A stretch of DNA of 64,000 nt from Eledone cirrhosa (lineage: Eukaryota), in contig OZ024743.1 of assembly GCA_964016885.1 (NCBI GenBank), positions 318,432,001-318,496,000 on the forward strand. The letters run 5' to 3'. Below, one piece after another: positions 8,965-59,455 of this stretch (its first letter is position 1; the number at the start of each line of letters is the position of its first letter). The notes under the pieces were generated by a model. That model saw only the letters and a program-made list of their open reading frames with translations, had not been told where the DNA came from and did not search any database. The position numbers and the translations under genes were made by a program.

Positions 8965-10672
8965 TACTTATTTCTGGGAGGGTGGGGATGGCAAAGTTCT
9001 GAAACACTCCTTCCAGTGAGTCTTGTCAGAATCAGATGTCTCCAAATGATCCAGCTGGATCCACAAGTTAGTCCAGCCAAGTTCATAGCTGATATCCAAC
9101 CATCTTACTGGTCTCATGAGTCTCTTGCTGGCAGGTTTTACCCATAGAATCTGTCCAGTGATTCTTTCCTGAGACGTTCTAACCATATGCCTGTAATATC
9201 AGAACAGTGATCTCTTAATTTGGAGAAGTAGCGGCTCTACCTGGAGACTCTCTGATCTCTGAGCTATGCACTCTGTGGCTTGTATTCATGATTGTATTCT
9301 TTTGGTAATGACCATAGGTAAGGGTTGGCATGAATACCGAAACTTTTACACTTCTGATTAATGAATGCTGAAGCTGGTGCATTAATGTACCAGCTCTTAC
9401 AATTCTTGCACTTAATTCAGCATCCTGCCTTCTATCACTCATAAACACAGCTCTGAGATACTTGAACTTCTCCACCTGCTTCAGTGGAACTTCACTCACA
9501 TGTAGAGTGTACTGTGCAGGCCTCCTTGAGAGGATGTGTGTCTCAGTTTTTGCAGTGCTGATTTTTATTCCAGCCATTCAGCACTCGGCATCAAACATAT
9601 CAAGTGTATATCGGTGATCACCTATTAAGTAATACCATGTTGTCTGCAAATTCCAACTGACTGATCCTACACCTACCAGTTGTGATGCCACTTCCAACCT
9701 GACTGCACTTGCAAATCCTGTTCAGGAAGATTATGAACAGGAGAGGTGAGAGTACGCACCCTTGGTGGAGTTCGACTCTCACATTGAATGGTTTCAATTT
9801 AGTACTATCGATCCAAACACAAATACTTCTTGCACTTGCGGTACAAGCAGGGGTAAAAAGTTGCAGCAGAAACAGTAAAGACACCCAGAATTAAGCCATG
9901 GGAGGTCTTTTGGGTTAAGTTGGAATCTGACTTTAGCTCAGCAAATAAAGTGTTCTGGCAGAACATCTGCTTTCAGGAACGCATCTAGGGTACTTCTCTC
10001 TTCAGAGAGGTGCATTCTCATGATGTGAAGAGAATACATTGCTGATCTCCTAAACCTGATCACAACAAACTTTTCTGATGTACCTCATGTGCATCTGGGA
10101 GAAATGATTAATCTCTCAAATAAGGTTTAGAAGAGGAATTAAAAAGCTCAAATGTGGCAAAGCTTCTGAGGATGATGAAATTCAGCCTGAAATATTAAAA
10201 GCTTTATATAGAGAAGGTATTCTCTGGGTAACTCATGTGTGCTGGATGGACTGGATTTCTGGAAAGGAAACAATGGCAATTGGGAATGATAATCCCAATT
10301 TTCAAAAAGGGAGACAACAGAGCATGCTCCAATTATAAAGGGATCTTGTTATGCCTCCTCAGTAAAGTCTAAGCTAAGTGTCTGGCAAAGAGATATAGGG
10401 AGATTGTAAAGTCAAAGCTGGCTGATAAACAGTGTGGTTTTCACCCCGCATGCAGCACAGTTCATCAAATATTCACACTGCAGTAGGTCTTTGAGAAATC
10501 GTTGGAGTACTGCCAAAAGGTGTATGCTTGCTTCGTAGACCTCGAAAATGCATATATCCATGTTCGATGGGAGTCTCTGCAGGAGTATGCGATTGATGGA
10601 CAGTTTCTTGTTGCCCTGATGTCCCAATACAAATGCCCCAGTATTTGTGTTCAGATAAGTGGCACACAAAGT
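8965..10672. mobile_element. RTE-like LINE with inverted 5' part (3' half on -, 8965..9830; 5' half on +, 9880..10672)
   Basis: QGCVLSP/FADN on the minus strand and FVDLENAY on the plus strand. Both halves meet at the same SICV protein position. Confidence 0.7.
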
Positions 10673-10823: not shown

Positions 10824-11012
10824 TACGAGGTTTGGTTGAAAAGTTTATAGTGTGACTACGAAGGAGTGATGCTAAAGCTGTGAAATCTTGCTTGCATTAA
10901 ATTCAGCCCTTCTTACTAATAGCTGCATTGTTTTTTTCCAGGGACTATGTTGAAAAATAAACCTCATTTGGTCATTCCACAAGAGTATCATGGTCCACCT
11001 ATGAACTTTTCA
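10824..11012. mobile_element. Mariner-like MITE
   Basis: tacgaggtttggttgaaaagtt ... gaacttttca termini. Reverse copy at 42573..42773. Confidence 0.6.
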
Positions 11013-27933: not shown

Positions 27934-30748
27934 TAGGCATATGACTTTTTTACAACCCCATATGAGCATGCTATTTTCTAATGAGGTTTTTGTCATAAAG
28001 AAAGAATTACAGTAGTTTTTTTGTAAATTTTGAAAAAGATTCTTGCACATACTAAATTATATTTTTAAATTTTTGGTAATTAGCCAGTCCCATAAAATAA
28101 ATACCTAAAACAATAAATTATGACACTAAAAAATTTATTTTAATTATTAGTTAAACAAAATTAAACTCTAAGGTTCTACTACTTTTACAAAATGGCAAAA
28201 GGTCCTGCACAACTTTTACAGCTCGCTCAGCACAAATGTTCAAGCGTTGCGTCACAATTGGAGATTCTTCATTAGACCAAAATTTTCTGACGGTGTTTGT
28301 AGCCTTTTCACACTTGGCCTTAATTAGTTGGTCAATGAGTTTCTGCTTGCTGTCAGCTCTATACAGTTGACTTGAGGACCACATTTTCCCCCACATTCTG
28401 CAGATGTATTCGGCACCAGCGCGCAGCTTCGCTTGTTCATCAGGCATCAAAGTAAACCCAAGCAACAAATAAATTGCTCGGCTATTCCAACGAACATTGT
28501 GCAAATTAGGTAATTTCTTAAAATTTATTTTAGGAAACGCACCGTTTTCAAAGAAATGTTGCACGGCTATCATGAGATGCCAAAGGAAATCCATGTCACT
28601 TCTCCAGCGCGTCGGGGTTTCATTAATTTCCGTCATTCCATTTGAAAAGTTCTGCTTCAGTTCGTCATAGTTCTTTAAAATGGCCTCAACAAAGTAATTT
28701 GTTGTTTTGCTACTATATAGTTGATCAAAATAAACTTTCAATGCACGGTCTAAAATGTGGTGCTGGCATCCAACATATAATGGCTTGCTATAACCGCGAC
28801 GCGCGAACTCACTGTTGAGCATGGTAACAACTCCTGCCCTTTTGCCGGTATTGACACTAGTTGTGTCGGAGACTATCATCACGATAGATTTCCACAGTTC
28901 ATATTTGTCAATAACTTCTTTCAATCCATTAAATATAGTAAGAGCCTTTCCATCGGTTAATGCCATCGGCCTCAGGCGTATTTCTTTCTCACCATTTTTT
29001 ATCACTACAACCTGATATTCTACATCTCTCATTCGTTTTCCATCAAAATGAAGGCTCCATTTTTCCCTTTTGAGTTCATTTTTCTACTTTTCCATGAGTT
29101 TCCATGATTTTCTCTGATAACTGCTTTGTGCACTGCCGACTGACTCGGGGTGCTCACCTTAATACCACCACTTTTAAATTCGTTGAAAACTGCTGCTGCT
29201 TTTCTACTAGGTAATTTAGTATTTCTTACTAGGTTAACAGCATGAGCTGTGTTTTCTCTTTTTCGTTTTTTTTCTGGTGAAGGTGAAGGTTTGTAATCGC
29301 TGGTAATTGTATCGGTGTCACTGTAGCTTTCATTTGAATTCAGATGAATGTATGAGCAGGATGGCTTATCATGATCTAGTTCTTGTTTTTTGTTTTTAAT
29401 TCTCTTAGAAGGATGGATTTTCTTTTCACTGTCTATTTTCATTGTAGTATACCCAACCTTTCCACAACTCTCAACTTGTTTTTCATAAAATGACAAATCT
29501 TCGGCTGCTAACCATATCCCATATCTTTTTGTAATGTCAAACAGATTATTGAAATTTGCAGAGCCAGGTCTTTTCACTTCTTTTTCCTTTTTTTAAATTA
29601 TTTTTCAATTTTTCGAGGTATTGAAAGTTTGTTGATAGTTGGAAAGCCGAACTTTTCCCATAAACTTTCACATTCTCCAGTGATTATCTTAATTCTTTTT
29701 TTGGTATTTTTCTCTTCAGCAGCAAGAGTGATATATCTATCAACAATCTGTTGCTCAGTAGGTAGCTTGCATAATTCGATTAATGAACTTTGAATTTTCG
29801 TTTTCCTAGATTTCTTTCTCTACAAAATGACAAATATTTTGTGCCCAAATCTTTTTACTTTACTCTTTAGCAACTGGATTTTTATACATCTGAAATTTAT
29901 AATATTAATATAATATAATTATAAATATTAAAATATATTAATAAATATACATGGGTACAAGCTGAAGCATATAGACAATATGCCCCCACACCCTCCCACT
30001 GCAAAGTGGTCATGGAGGTGCCACAGCAAAAAAGCACCCAGCCCACACTGTAAAGTGGACGTGTAGGCGCCACGGAAAAAAAGCACCCAGCACTCACTTA
30101 ACAAAAAGATGACAATGAGCGAAAAAAAGCAGAACGAAAATGTTTTAAAATGGAAAATTAAATTATATTTTTTTCAAAATAAAAAAGACACAGAGCTCCA
30201 ATGTCTTCAGCCATCGAGATGGTCCTTTTTAAATGAGGTTGGTGTTAGGAGGGGCATCCAGCTGTAGAAATCAAGCCAAAATCAGTTCCTGTATGAGCAA
30301 GGCAGGGTCAGCCGACCAGACACTGCCCACATAGGACAACCCGTCTAACCCATGCTAGCATGGAAGAACGGACGTAAAACGGTGATGATGATGATACCTC
30401 GCAAATTTTAATTTATTCTATTTATGTATTTTATGAATTTTATGAACAGATTAAACTGACAAATAAATGATGAACAAGCAATAAAGTTGATCCATTAAAC
30501 AATTTAAAGAAGAATACTATATTTTATAAACTGTTAAATTGCACACTATATTTTTATTACATACACACGTGTATTGTATATGCAATTCTATATTAGTTAA
30601 TCGATGTTAAAGAATCTACCTTGTGCAAGAGTTTTTTAAAATTCTAATATTTTTTAACATGTTCACAAGTATTTTCTAGTAAAAGTTCATCTGAAAATGG
30701 CATGTTCATTTATTTTTTTAACAAAAGTGTACTTTAGGAATATGCCTA
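27934..30748 (-). mobile_element. Complete hAT-superfamily (hATm-like) DNA transposon
   Basis: TIR TAGGCATAT at both ends with subterminal similarity. Perfect 8-bp TSD ATATACAC at 27926..27933 and 30749..30756. Confidence 0.9.
28151..29889 (-). pseudogene. hAT-type transposase, frameshifted
   Basis: LWEKFGFPT, LFDI, WSLHFDGK (D), SDTTSVNTG (D), CQHH (CxxH), RW and NICAERAVK (E) motifs, split over several frames. Confidence 0.88.
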
Positions 30749-41504: not shown

Positions 41505-41880
41505 TGTCCGCAGAAGACACAGTAAAGAGGTCGTTTTGGTGCCGTGACAAAAAGCACCCAGTCCACACTGTAAAGTGGTTGTGTTGGTGCCGTGACAAAA
41601 AACACCCAGTCCACATTATAAAATGGTCGTTTTGGTGTTGTGACAAAAAGCACCCAGTCCACACTGTAAAGTGGTTGTGTTGGTGTCACAACAAAAATCG
41701 CCCAGTCCACACTGCAAATGTGGTTGGTGTTAGGAAGGGCATCCAGTCAGAAACCGAGTCAGAAAGAGTTCTGATTGAGCAAGAGTCGGTCATCTGATCT
41801 GGCTTGTCTCCCAATGGGACAACTCGTCTAACCCATGCTAGCATGGAAAAATGTACATTAAACGGTGATGATGATGATGA
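41505..41880 (+). mobile_element. SINE with about 4-5 tandem 47-bp units and RTE tail
   Basis: ccagtccacactgtaaagtggttgtgttggtgccgtgacaaaaagcac repeats, 3' module and (GAT)n. Confidence 0.85.
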
Positions 41881-54626: not shown

Positions 54627-55719
54627 ACCAGATAGAAAAATGCGTACAACAAAAAAAAGTAATATTGTTGGAATATAAACCTTTAAAAATACAGGACAAG
54701 AAACTAAAATAAAACTTTAAAAGAATAGGACAAGAAACTAAGATAAAACTTTAAAAGAATAGGACAAGAAACTAAGATAAAACTTTAAAGAATTGGACAA
54801 GAAATAAAAAACTTTACAATAATATTAGTGGCAAAATTTTTATTGGTAAAAAATCGAGTTCCACATTCATAGGCTCTGGGTTCCACATTCAGAGGTCGTC
54901 GTCAGACCGGGGGATCATTTGATCCTGGTTTGAACACCAATTGGGCCATAACCATACCCCTATTTCATCATTCGGCGACACGCCTCATGTGTCATGCCTA
55001 ATGTGAATGGACCCATGGGCCCATGAGCACAGATCTTGAGCAGCAGCGGATGGTCTTGTCGTCCCGCTCATCCTTGATCTTGACCAACCCGTCCATCTTC
55101 TCCTTGCATCTTGTCCTTGAGTTCAAGTCCGGCAGTCCAGATGAATGCGTGCCACAGCTTTCTGGTACAGGAAGGGGGAGCAGGAGGACTGGAGGGATGA
55201 CGGGACAGAGGGAGGGAGGACCGGTGGTTGAGGGAGATGCCGTAGTCGGTGGTCAGAGTCGACATCTTGTCCCGGTCGTCTTCTCCATCTTCGTCTGGTG
55301 TTGCGGGACCAGAAGTGCATTCTTGGAGGAGACCTGCAGCTGCATCGGCCAATTCTTCTTGCAATGGTCATTCTGACGGAGCAGAACTGCTCAGCCAACC
55401 AACCCCAACCAGAACCAACCGCTCAGGGGCAACGCACAATGAGAGCATGACAATTATTATGCAATAATCAAGAAGATACTGGGGCATAGCACAGGAAACG
55501 AATAAAAAAATTTTGCCACTAATATTATTGTAAAATTTTTTATTTCTTGTCGAATTCTTTAAAGTTTTATCTTAGTTTCTTGTCCTATTCTTTTAAAGTT
55601 TTATCTTAGTTTCTTGTCCTATTCTTTTAAAGTTTTATTTTAGTTTCTTGTCCTGTATTTTTAAAGGTTTATATTCCAACAATATTACTTTTTTTGCTGT
55701 ACGCATTTTTCTATCTGGT
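54627..55719. mobile_element. Foldback-like unit with ~218-bp TIRs containing 34-bp tandem repeats
   Basis: 54627..54844 is the reverse complement of 55501..55719 with about 3 substitutions and one homopolymer indel. The 660-bp core is GC-rich. Confidence 0.8.
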
Positions 55720-55992
55720 CTACTATTTTTTAAGGCAATGCAAGCAATAACTATCTAATAATTAAATGATCATAGTGAATTACTGACAAGTGATTGACAT
55801 TTTAAAGTTCTTTTGAGTATAATTGCAATCTAGTTGAGGCAACTGGCTTAATGACAAAGCTAGTAAATCATGAATGCATTTGAGATGATTAGTGCATAAT
55901 AGTGAATAGGTGAAACTTGTGCATTTCAATGGTGTTACAACAATAGATGTAAGTTATATAGTAGTAATACTTTATCATTTTAACTTTTTAGA

Positions 55993-56352
55993 ATGGACAA
56001 AAACCCATGCAAAGAAATGACTTTGACTGCAGTGATTCTCTCCAATTTACTTACAAAGCAAAACGTGGTCAAATACCTTATCATCTCTGATAAAATGCCC
56101 ATTGAATCACTGAAAATCGGATGCATGGAATTCCTCATAAAATGCACCTATGAATCGGAAGCCATCACATATATCAATGGATATAGGGAGTTGTTCACAC
56201 TGGAAGACCATCACTTCATTTGTGACTTCATCAGTTATCTCCACGATTATCTCAGACACCCAATGCCATTGATGAGAGGTGATCCAATGTGTGAGCATGT
56301 AACTAATCTTATAGAAGTTGTTATCGACCACCTGGCTTTTAGTGACATTTGA
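55993..56352 (+). CDS. Orphan 119-aa ORF of unknown function
   Basis: Complex, protein-like composition in non-repeat DNA, preceded by a gtaagt...ttttag mini-intron candidate (55949..55991). No recognised homology. Confidence 0.4.
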   Translation: MDKNPCKEMTLTAVILSNLLTKQNVVKYLIISDKMPIESLKIGCMEFLIKCTYESEAITYINGYRELFTLEDHHFICDFISYLHDYLRHPMPLMRGDPMCEHVTNLIEVVIDHLAFSDI

Positions 56353-56532
56353 CTGATTTGACTGATAATGATGTATTTTTAAAAAGTATGTGTACATTCT
56401 TGTTACTGTTTTAAGGCAATGCAAGCAACAACTATTTAATAAAATTTAAATTTAAAAATGACCATTGTGCATTACTAGTATGATGACATTTTATTAAGTC
56501 ACAAAATTAGTCAGTCAGCCATAGAACAAGGA

Positions 56533-57190
56533 TCAGGTGGCAAAAACATTGGCAAAAATTTGTGTCAATTTAAGATTTCCAACATTGTTCAAATGAATCA
56601 TATCTGGTTTGAAGTCAGATTTGTCAAATTTTGACCAATTTTCAATGTTGTGAAGATTGGGCAAGTTCAATTTTTGAATCATTTCTTTCATGCAGTAATT
56701 AAACTTTTCCAAACAAGAATTTCTCTTGCCCAAGTCATTTTTATTTTCAATTACACTTTGTGGACGTGGAATGACATCACTGTAGAAAATGGGTGTACAG
56801 TGGTGCTTTTCCGCTATTTTCTGTAGCCTTGCAAAGAGACTCTTCCCCTGTTTTTCCGGTTTTGTGCCTCAAATGGGCACTTTGTCCTTAATTTACAAAT
56901 AAATGATTAATAAAAAATACTTGGGCAAAAATTATTGTATTACTTTGCACAGCTTTGTAGTGCCAACGGTGCGACGAGGATTCAGATCATTAGAGCCGAC
57001 ATGAACCACCAATACTTTCACAAAAGAACAACAGATAACAATGTTGGCGATTAACATTACCTGGCCCTGATGGGCCCCAGGTATACAAAATATCTAAGTA
57101 TTTTTGTTGGTATGATAAGTAAATACATTTGAATTAATATTTTATCATTCGATTTCACCACATTTCTAATTATGGATTTGTAAAAACTGG
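56533..57190 (-). pseudogene. SGNH/GDSL hydrolase-like remnant
   Basis: Ordered blocks xKSIIRNV, CIPGA, VVHVGSND, SDVIPR and DMIHLNNVG, with frame breaks and stops. Confidence 0.72.
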
Positions 57191-58429
57191 CATGAATGTG
57201 AATTTGATCAGTCCAATTGCCCGATTTTAGTGAAAAGTTTTGATTCGAAATGGAAATACTCCATTTCCGTGCCATGGAAAAAATGAATAAGCCGATCAAA
57301 AAGCCGCAAAACATCATTTTTAATTAAGCGAAATTAGTGGATGCAAATCTCAGAAAATATTGTACACTATTCGCACCTATCGCACTATTCGCACCTATCG
57401 GTACAAAAATATAGCGCACTATTCGCACCTATCGGTGCAAAAAATCGCACGACTGTTAATAATACTAGAAGTGCAAACTATCTGTTGAATACCTGGTATA
57501 TGAAGAGCAACCGATACGATCGGTCGGCGATCGGTCTTGAAGAAGAATGAAGAATGAAGTGAAATTTTGGTCTGGTTGTTGTCATCGGTGTTTCGCAGAG
57601 ATGCCGGCACGAACAAAGGTGTCAGTGACACAAAGTTGTCCGCTTGAACAAAGGTGTCGGTCCGACAAAGGTGTCAGTCAGACAGACAGTCAGACAGTGT
57701 CACAATCGGTACGACAAAGCGATCGATGCGATTAAAAAAAATTTAACTCATATATTTTCGCAAACTATTGATAGATTGGTACAAAAAATAGCTTTGATAA
57801 TAAACATAAATTTTTAACGAAGTATTTAAAAAGCATTTTAGCAGTGAAAAGTGAAGTAATGTTTCACACTGACGCAAGTAAGGCCGTTCAGAAATGATGT
57901 AGTCAATTAGGAGGAGGGGATTTGGCGATTTGACTACATTTGGCTAACGTAATCACAATCACAAGAGTTCCGCCGAAAAAAATTCGTAATTTCTGGATTA
58001 CCTCCCCTAACGTCACGCTTACTACTCACTCACTTGAACACAAGATTTATCAGCAAACTTTGATTATAAACTTTTTCCTGCTGGACCAAATTTCTAGATT
58101 TTTAAGCCAAAAGATGCGTAATGATCTACTGTTCATGCTCATATAAGTTTTATCTCAGTTAAATAAAGTAGAGCCGCGCTGTACTGTCATAAACAGACGA
58201 TTGCCAATGAAAACACGACCACAACAATATTACTAAACGGACTACCGTCCGTTTAGGATATATATGTATATATATATATATGTAGGACGTAAAATGATGA
58301 TGATGATGATGATATATATATATATATTTGTATATATTTCTTTAGGTTTGTTGGTTCACCACTGGATAGAACTGGTCATTCTGTATGGTCAATCCTGGTG
58401 TAATATTATGAAGAGTACTCAACGCAGTG

Positions 58430-59455
58430 CAGTTCACCCATCTTCGTTTGTGTAGTTGGTGGTGCTACGCCAGTCATCTGGTATGACCCCATTCTGTATT
58501 ACTTAGTTTACTATCCGGATGACCATAGTATGTCCCACCATTCCAGATGCTTTCAACATCTCAACAGCTATCTCCGATGGCCCAGCTGCCTTGCCTATCT
58601 TCATATCTTTGATTGCCTTACTTATTATACTACCTTTAACTTGCACCGCTGGTCTCTCTAATGGATCGATTTGGGCAGACTATCTTTTTCCCATTTATTC
58701 TCCTCATTTAGTAGTCTCTCGTAGTGACACTTCCAAGCTACCTTCTTATCAGTATCAGTGAGGGCAACTACACCATCATCCTTATGGACACACTTCTCCC
58801 TCACAATATCACGGTTTTCCTTGGCACATTGTCTTGCAATCCTGAACACCTCACGTCTTTGGGCCTCCCGTTGTAGAACATGCTTGAACTTTCTATCCTC
58901 TGCTTTCCTTCTTGCAAAGTACACTTGTTTCCTTGCTTCTCTCCTGGCCACTTGATAGTGTTCTCTACTTCCCCCATCCTGCCATACTTACTAATCCTGC
59001 TTTTTGGCCTTGATTGACTTCTCCACCTTACTGTTCCACCGCCATGTTACTCTCCTCCTGCCTATAGGTCTGCTCCAGCCACAAATTTCATCTGTCGCCT
59101 ACAGCAGGTTAACTTTCAAGAAATCCCACTGTTCCTCTATATTGTACGACTCTAATTGCTCTTCTTTACTGTCAAAAGCATCAAGTAATATGCTTTTAAA
59201 TTTGTTACTGGCTGTGGGGTCCTTCAACTTCCATATTCTTCTCCTCAGGGTAGTACTCGTCTGTCGTCGAGTATGTCTAGTCCTGACTATGAGGTCACTA
59301 ACTATGAGGCTATGTTGGGAGAGGGATTTTTCACGGGGGAGGGATTTAATGTTTACAACAGACACTCTGTCACTCTGTCACTCTAGTAAGGATATAATTT
59401 ATCTGGCTGGCGTATTCCCCTGATCTATAGGTGATCAAGTGATTGTCTCGTTTTT
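58430..59455 (-). mobile_element. RTE LINE internal fragment (endonuclease C-term to linker)
   Basis: TYRSG...QINYIL, SQHSLIV, WKLKD and HYERLLN motifs. Confidence 0.8.

Follow-up and report, generated by a model that had tools for sequence, protein, structure and literature searches.

Features of the locus

The window, the whole 64,000-nucleotide stretch of Eledone cirrhosa DNA that was analysed, contains a 3631-bp element at positions 54628-58258, oriented on the minus strand. It is almost certainly one complete non-autonomous Helitron that carries no enzyme of its own. From its 5' end to its 3' end, that is, from right to left in the window, its features are as follows.

54628..58258, minus: whole element; host A, then TC ... 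CTGG, then host T
58233..58258, minus: 5' terminus; TC directly before a 10-bp stem with a GGTA loop
57985..58258, minus: 5' terminal 250-275 bp, present in all recurrent deletion subfamilies
57365..57684, minus: CpG-rich short repeats in the leader 5' of the RepHel start; putative promoter or 5' UTR
57174..57323, minus: first ~50 codons of RepHel, truncated by the internal deletion that made the window derivative
56533..57173, minus: SGNH/GDSL esterase remnant; two predicted exons (57093-56944 and 56886-56533) separated by a 57-nt GT-AG intron
56409..56493: direct repeat 1, a divergent duplicate of the pre-arm segment (72-76%)
55993 (ATG)..56352 (stop), plus: 119-aa ORF, uninterrupted in 21 of 24 copies
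55719..55804, minus: pre-arm segment (direct repeat 2); arm-adjoining motif common to families A, B and C
55506..55718, minus: inner arm, repeating the 3' terminus in inverted orientation and containing four 34-bp units
54842..55505: spacer of 664 bp, GC-rich, in identical orientation in 48 of 48 copies
54628..54841, minus: outer arm and 3' terminus CTGG

A first-pass annotation had described here a block of a long-TIR foldback, a 119-aa ORF between direct repeats of ~85 bp, a convergent SGNH hydrolase remnant, triplicated CpG-rich short repeats and a perfect 10-bp hairpin, flanked by TA runs. All of these components are present, including both arms and the TA runs on either side; the right-hand direct repeat lies at 56409-56493, and the leader repeats comprise cactattcgcacctatcg and acaaaggtgtc, three times each. 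None of 200 shuffles folded as well as the hairpin at 58233-58256 (z=-5.3). Its extent and status needed correction: the element starts at 54628 and not at 54627, and instead of a fragment it is a complete two-ended element, with the hairpin as its 5' end and the foldback as its 3' end.

The element adjoins, on its right, a LINE-like reverse-transcriptase remnant (58340-59400, minus), presumably of RTE type. Elsewhere in the window, two long ORFs at 28151-29592 (minus) look by eye like a DNA transposase remnant, and arrays of a 48-bp unit, also found in dispersed repeats of the window, occupy 93-1643 and 41517-41731.

Ends and insertion target

Among 58 two-ended copies, the last four letters were CTGG in 53, CTAG in two and others in three, and a host T followed directly in 56. 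At the 5' end, a host A preceded TC, in register, at 27 of the 30 loci that had been found without A or TC in the search pattern; at loci L061-L100 the A before TC belonged to that pattern, so that A and TC are there partly selected. Empty paralogous sites were recovered for L006, L065 and L093, each with the flanks joined and zero target duplication. L065 and L093 are distinct derivatives located at the identical position of one host repeat.

The 3' flank read TATA at 38 of the 58 junctions, and 30 of the 58 lay inside a run of at least four TA, compared with 17-19% of background AT sites. The insertion target is the A|T dinucleotide, mostly A|TATA. The TA-targeting suggested in the first-pass annotation is retained as a preference for TA runs and dropped as strict microsatellite targeting. 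With an HUH Rep and its PIF1 partner on copies that have both ends in common, and with no target-site duplication, the family belongs to the Helitron superfamily. Precise head-to-tail junctions numbered zero in the whole assembly, a scan that covers genomic copies.

Copy number and deletion classes

The 2539-bp core gave 733 first-look candidates in the 3.0-Gb genome, and the 40 that were scored matched at 92-100%. All 30 core copies fetched carry at least one arm at the identical junction, and in 27 of them most of the foldback unit is present. The genome contains 315 exact matches to a 28-mer of the hairpin end (control, 0). The family is young, since 24 full-length copies differ by a median of only 1.5%. 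Near-identical pieces, including one deletion junction, were also detected in two sequencing runs labelled as other organisms, which represent relatives or same-species traces; two small-share runs held short pieces only, and no RNA run was among the sequencing runs listed with element pieces.

Exact arm ends numbered 812, of which 390, about half, have the inner context, which argues against solo foldbacks or single arms existing in any large number. A separately moving foldback or TIR transposon (arm-spacer-arm) was considered and rejected, there being no sign of a solo unit among the 812 arm ends or the copies compared. It had been conceivable that the sub-parts occur independently, without common boundaries; there was no sign of a solo foldback pool, and the single mobile unit proposed at the outset is borne out by the arm at the same junction in every core copy fetched and by the 58 two-ended copies.

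Forty of the 315 5'-end loci were sampled, namely those heading the contig 1 list once the previously fetched set is left out. Eight are of the window type, 28 fall into four further recurrent deletion classes, and the rest comprise two single deletion types, one hairpin alone and one copy (L100) that continues into a Rep ORF. Both arms and the pre-arm segment are retained in each of the five recurrent structure classes, and the four copies without all or most of the inner arm are singletons, every junction being different, which argues that the foldback is needed in cis. Natural deletion derivatives thereby map the cis requirements to ~270 bp at the 5' end and ~1.2 kb at the 3' end.

In five of the 40 loci (L066, L073, L080, L085 and L099), the spacer and all or nearly all of the outer arm are lost. 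The break lies close to where the inner arm ends on its inner side, so the foldback may be a deletion hotspot.

Parent element and transposase

Longer copies that share the element's ends carry a Helitron RepHel gene, which agrees with the first-pass view of a rolling-circle element with accessory cargo, derived from a larger one. Rep DNA from L100 retrieved 32 genomic matches, 20 of which were examined. In family A, that of the window, terminal segments of the family were found on 13 of the 14 RepHel loci examined, all with broken ORFs. Family B comprises two 11.2-kb loci, in which the hairpin at the 5' end is kept with a paired change, and family C three loci, two of which have another 10-bp stem after TC with unchanged geometry. 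RepHel protein identity to family A is 79-89% for family B and 50-60% for family C. At a fourth distant RepHel locus (L135) no ends were seen. The top 30 Helitron_like_N loci of the genome were tried as parents and set aside as other Helitron families, by Rep motifs in five of the 30.

The best RepHel examined is that of family-B locus L129, a 1904-aa plus a 507-aa frame with one stop; no fully intact RepHel was present among the examined loci. Its domains are DUF6570 (E=9e-18), Helitron_like_N, PIF1 and a C-terminal UCH protease, with the endonuclease absent. Rep motif 1 of the parent reads FVTLSCAE, versus FITVTCNP in the top Helitron_like_N matches of the genome. Among the Rep signatures FWR is present, and RGAP stands where HLE2 has S (RGSP) and HLE1 has L (RGLP). 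DUF6570 is a mark of HLE2, and UCH is enriched in HLE2 subgroups c and d, according to the available part of PMC11417382. By domain content, the transposase is assignable to the HLE2 type. The nearest library proteins share 35-40% identity with it; the 18 scanned contained DUF6570 in 18, UCH in nine, Peptidase_C48 in three and an endonuclease in none, and three of the ten nearest proteins looked up come from Rhodnius, Bemisia and Pleurobrachia. Relatives that combine RepHel and UCH occur in Rhodnius prolixus, Bemisia tabaci and Pleurobrachia bachei, and HELIANO Table S1 assigns the Repbase element Helitron-2_RPr to HLE2.

A 5'-5'-3' composite, formed by self-insertion at A|T in the Rep gene, is present on two chromosomes (L100 and L107, the latter without the last ~85 bp), and the insertion site is empty in 12 other copies. 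This arrangement with two 5' ends, found on two chromosomes, points to the hairpin end as the start of copying and to the foldback as its stop. A similar self-insertion composite has been modelled for FoHeli elements (PMC5148889, in the part available).

One parent copy (L105:3196-3230) opens with an inverted 30-bp piece of the 3' terminus, the hairpin end being absent, and looks two-armed. Families A and B both retain a segment of ~55 bp located 3' of the transposase (L105_106 ~9893-9960; L129_130 ~10913-10965), which the window copy has lost by deletion. By eye this segment is similar to what we take to be an HDV-like ribozyme core, for which Rfam returned nothing; across seven parent loci, Rfam gave chance microRNA matches only.

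Cargo genes

The gene order in parent copy L105 is RepHel-UCH, SGNH gene, 119-aa ORF and foldback. In the window, the deletion fuses RepHel codon ~50 to the SGNH gene directly past its GDS motif; the window copy has thus lost the GDS motif, with the catalytic serine, and the first donor, and it contains one stop. Its minus-strand translation (57093-56533) includes GSND and DMIH motifs and matches Pfam Lipase_GDSL_3 at E=0.0026, below the family cut-off, with GDSL as the top lead in Atlas. The L117 copy has an open frame of 184 codons from GDS on, with two predicted GT-AG introns of 54 and 57 nt; GDS, PGA and GSND share one predicted spliced frame there, and DxxH was read in the window and L105 translations. 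The gene is frameshifted in L105. Of 26 scored copies, 22 have exons 2 and 3 open, unlike the window copy. The captured SGNH esterase gene is probably spliced. Its source gave no homologue among longer proteins and no PDB match.

No Pfam family at cut-off and no homologue were found for the 119-aa ORF. Its single-sequence fold has a pLDDT of 39, and Atlas gave weak BTB/BACK-like matches (0.90-0.92, with family shares of 16-70%), which serve as a lead only. The direct repeats that bracket it (~55721-55804 and 56409-56493) are 76% identical over 85 bp by BLAST and 94% in a 34-nt core; the 85-bp repeat is a duplicated pre-arm segment. Neither the SGNH gene nor the 119-aa ORF was found in families B and C, and both are passengers.

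Since SGNH esterases are found in CR1 elements and Terminons (available parts of PMC4021074 and PMC6431247) and the foldback resembles a TIR element, the locus might be an endogenous virus, a CR1/L2 5' end, a Terminon-like element or a nested, separate TIR foldback transposon. Any of these is extremely improbable: the arm sits at the same junction in 30 of 30 core copies with no solo pool, the SGNH gene has predicted GT-AG introns, and the parent carries a RepHel, with no RT, polB or DDE domain seen in the domain scan of its ORFs. No virus, LINE ORF1 or Terminon link, as raised in the first-pass annotation, was found; the longer copies that it advised seeking carry, of the enzymes it named, the RepHel.

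The 3' foldback

The arms of the window copy are 98% alike over 215 bp. The same layout, with arms of 130-215 bp and a loop of 0.65-0.85 kb, recurs in all three families, the transposases of which are up to 50% divergent. Family B has arms of 190 bp (98% alike) and family C arms of 130-150 bp that are ~1.1 kb apart; both families end in CTAG|T. The arms are homologous between families A, B and C, and the spacers are without any similarity. Family-diagnostic differences are common to both arms at 49 of 58, 53 of 59 and 15 of 24 sites, counts in which ragged inner edges are included. The whole foldback is predicted to fold into one long stem closing at the 3' terminus, and the last base of the pre-arm segment mirrors the host T. 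No significant local hairpin was detected in the last 70 nt in any of the three families (z of -1.6, -0.2 and -1.6).

Within family A, arm substitutions are mostly private, with nine shared pairs out of 210 (expected 4.5, p=0.019). Copy-correction of the arms at every round was rejected, the excess of shared alleles being weak. The number of 34-bp units is unequal between the arms in 28 of 62 copies, so that arm pairing tolerates asymmetry. A flip-flop of the spacer was also looked for and discarded, all 48 copies having one orientation.

Up to 12 copies of the 34-bp unit occur in one arm at L069, L092 and L022-L024, a possible minisatellite seed. Spacer ORFs gave no Pfam match; one of them, a 205-codon frame in a family-B spacer (L130:1430-2044, plus), has a cysteine/histidine pattern that presumably resembles a PHD finger.

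Proposed mechanism and alternatives

Taken as a whole, we read the element, with a probability of roughly 0.7, as an internal-deletion derivative of an HLE2-type RepHel element of ~11-13 kb, whose 1.1-kb 3' foldback is likely the termination signal. RepHel acting in trans would nick at A|TC, the 5' hairpin being the likely recognition site by extension from Helraiser (available part of PMC4778049). The top strand would then be peeled off from this nick. Once displaced, the outer arm could zip onto the earlier-displaced inner arm, forming a stem of ~200 bp that would close exactly at CTGG|T. This stem might stall the enzyme and trigger the second nick and circle formation, and the circle would insert at A|T, mostly A|TATA.

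In Helraiser, a short 3' hairpin is the terminator, and circles form without it (PMC4778049, as far as the available text goes); a terminator therefore need not be essential. According to the same portion of that source, the HUH nuclease cleaves single-stranded DNA only, and a stem closing at the nick site leaves little of it, which counts against a terminator. On balance, we lean slightly towards the giant 3' foldback acting as a rolling-circle terminator in place of a short hairpin. No transposition intermediate or circle was observed in the genome sequence, which is the material of this analysis. The mostly private arm substitutions within family A and the unequal unit numbers of the two arms likewise weigh against the terminator reading.

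The foldback of the same Helitron could alternatively be a self-priming end, in which the 3'-OH at CTGG would pair with the inner arm and prime the second strand. Hairpins of parvoviruses prime second-strand synthesis in this way. Closure of the stem exactly at the 3' terminus and conservation across families of the segment adjoining the inner arm are both consistent with priming. So is the A that precedes the inner arm in families A and B and in the family-C copy L137, which gives CTRG|T on the opposite strand, as at a nick site or circle junction. However, terminal resolution should produce a flip-flop of the spacer, whose orientation never varies among the 48 copies; the arms do not undergo re-templating at each round, and priming would consume the 3'-OH required for circle closure. 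We consider self-priming unlikely. We likewise put forward only tentatively that a giant panhandle may both stop rolling-circle copying and prime its own second strand, with the loop as an exchangeable cargo slot; if true, panhandle priming would be a step resembling that of parvoviruses and without a described counterpart in any transposon.

It is very unlikely that the inner arm is a remnant without function, left by an ancient inverted self-insertion and kept similar by gene conversion. Self-insertion is indeed known in family A, and long inverted repeats convert and collapse, as the breaks near the inner arm end in five of 40 loci illustrate. Nevertheless, the inner arm sits at ~1.1 kb from the terminus in each of the three families despite unrelated spacers and, though unstable, is kept in every recurrent deletion class.

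Annotation would be expected to mistake such elements for TIR foldbacks, and Helitron finders that rely on hairpins would be expected to overlook them. Since the cis requirements are mapped and a sister transposase is nearly intact, termination and second-strand priming are directly testable.

Comparison with known systems

Drosophila DINE-1 has foldback derivatives (Tetris). In our literature searches, to which Repbase, Dfam and subscription papers were external, no account of an autonomous Helitron with a long 3' foldback was found, though an earlier description may exist. The novelty lies in the end architecture and not in the SGNH cargo. Texim genes of fish (platyfish) Helitrons are likewise intron-containing SGNH hydrolases carried as cargo (PMC4021074, in the part available). 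They differ in host, and the SGNH gene described here is missing in the sister families and disrupted in the window copy; its capture was probably independent of that of texim.

In the available part of its description (PMC4778049), HLE1/Helraiser resembles the present family in its 5' TC, 3' CTRR and A|T target with an AT-rich 3' flank, as well as in gene capture and non-autonomous derivatives. Unlike HLE1 as described there, the present family has no short hairpin ~11 bp before the 3' end, contains DUF6570 and has a different Rep motif 1. It also departs from canonical Helentrons (Helitron2) in targeting A|T and not T|T, in having neither short repeats at both ends nor a 3' stem-loop, and in carrying UCH instead of the C-terminal AP endonuclease of Helentrons. 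HLE2 subgroups c and d with UCH combine DUF6570 and UCH without an endonuclease, as here, a likeness that concerns protein domains alone (available part of PMC11417382).

According to the portion of PMC5148889 at hand, the HLE2-reverse elements FoHeli3-5 of Fusarium oxysporum also have a 5' hairpin, an inverted repeat and no 3' hairpin, and FoHelis acquire multiple 5' termini via self-insertion. They differ in starting with TGCCT, ending in CTCCTGT, having repeats of 13-16 bp and, in that portion, no giant foldback.

The closest known system is the proto-Helentron of Phytophthora infestans, as characterized in the accessible parts of PMC4067079 and PMC11417382. Common to both are an HLE2-type RepHel with DUF6570 and without an endonuclease, a CTAG-type 3' end, an A|T target without duplication, a stem-loop at the extreme 5' end and a left inverted repeat deep inside the element. 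The start is TC here and TT in the proto-Helentron, and the repeats are 130-215 bp compared with 12 nt. The inner repeat lies here beyond the last gene on the 3' side, at 1.1 kb from the 3' terminus, whereas that of the proto-Helentron lies 3.6 kb from the 5' end; its repeats flank RepHel, while both arms are here downstream of it. The present family also has a fused UCH protease and an animal host, unlike the oomycete element. In the accessible parts of these two sources, ends of this kind are reported from Phytophthora only, and the HELIANO survey of 404 genomes (PMC11417382) found nothing similar to the proto-Helentron. The present family bears on the question of how HLE2-type elements mark their ends: in a young, high-copy animal lineage, it joins a transposase of apparent HLE2 type, TC/CTRG ends and a 5' hairpin with a 3' stem ten times longer than the repeats described.
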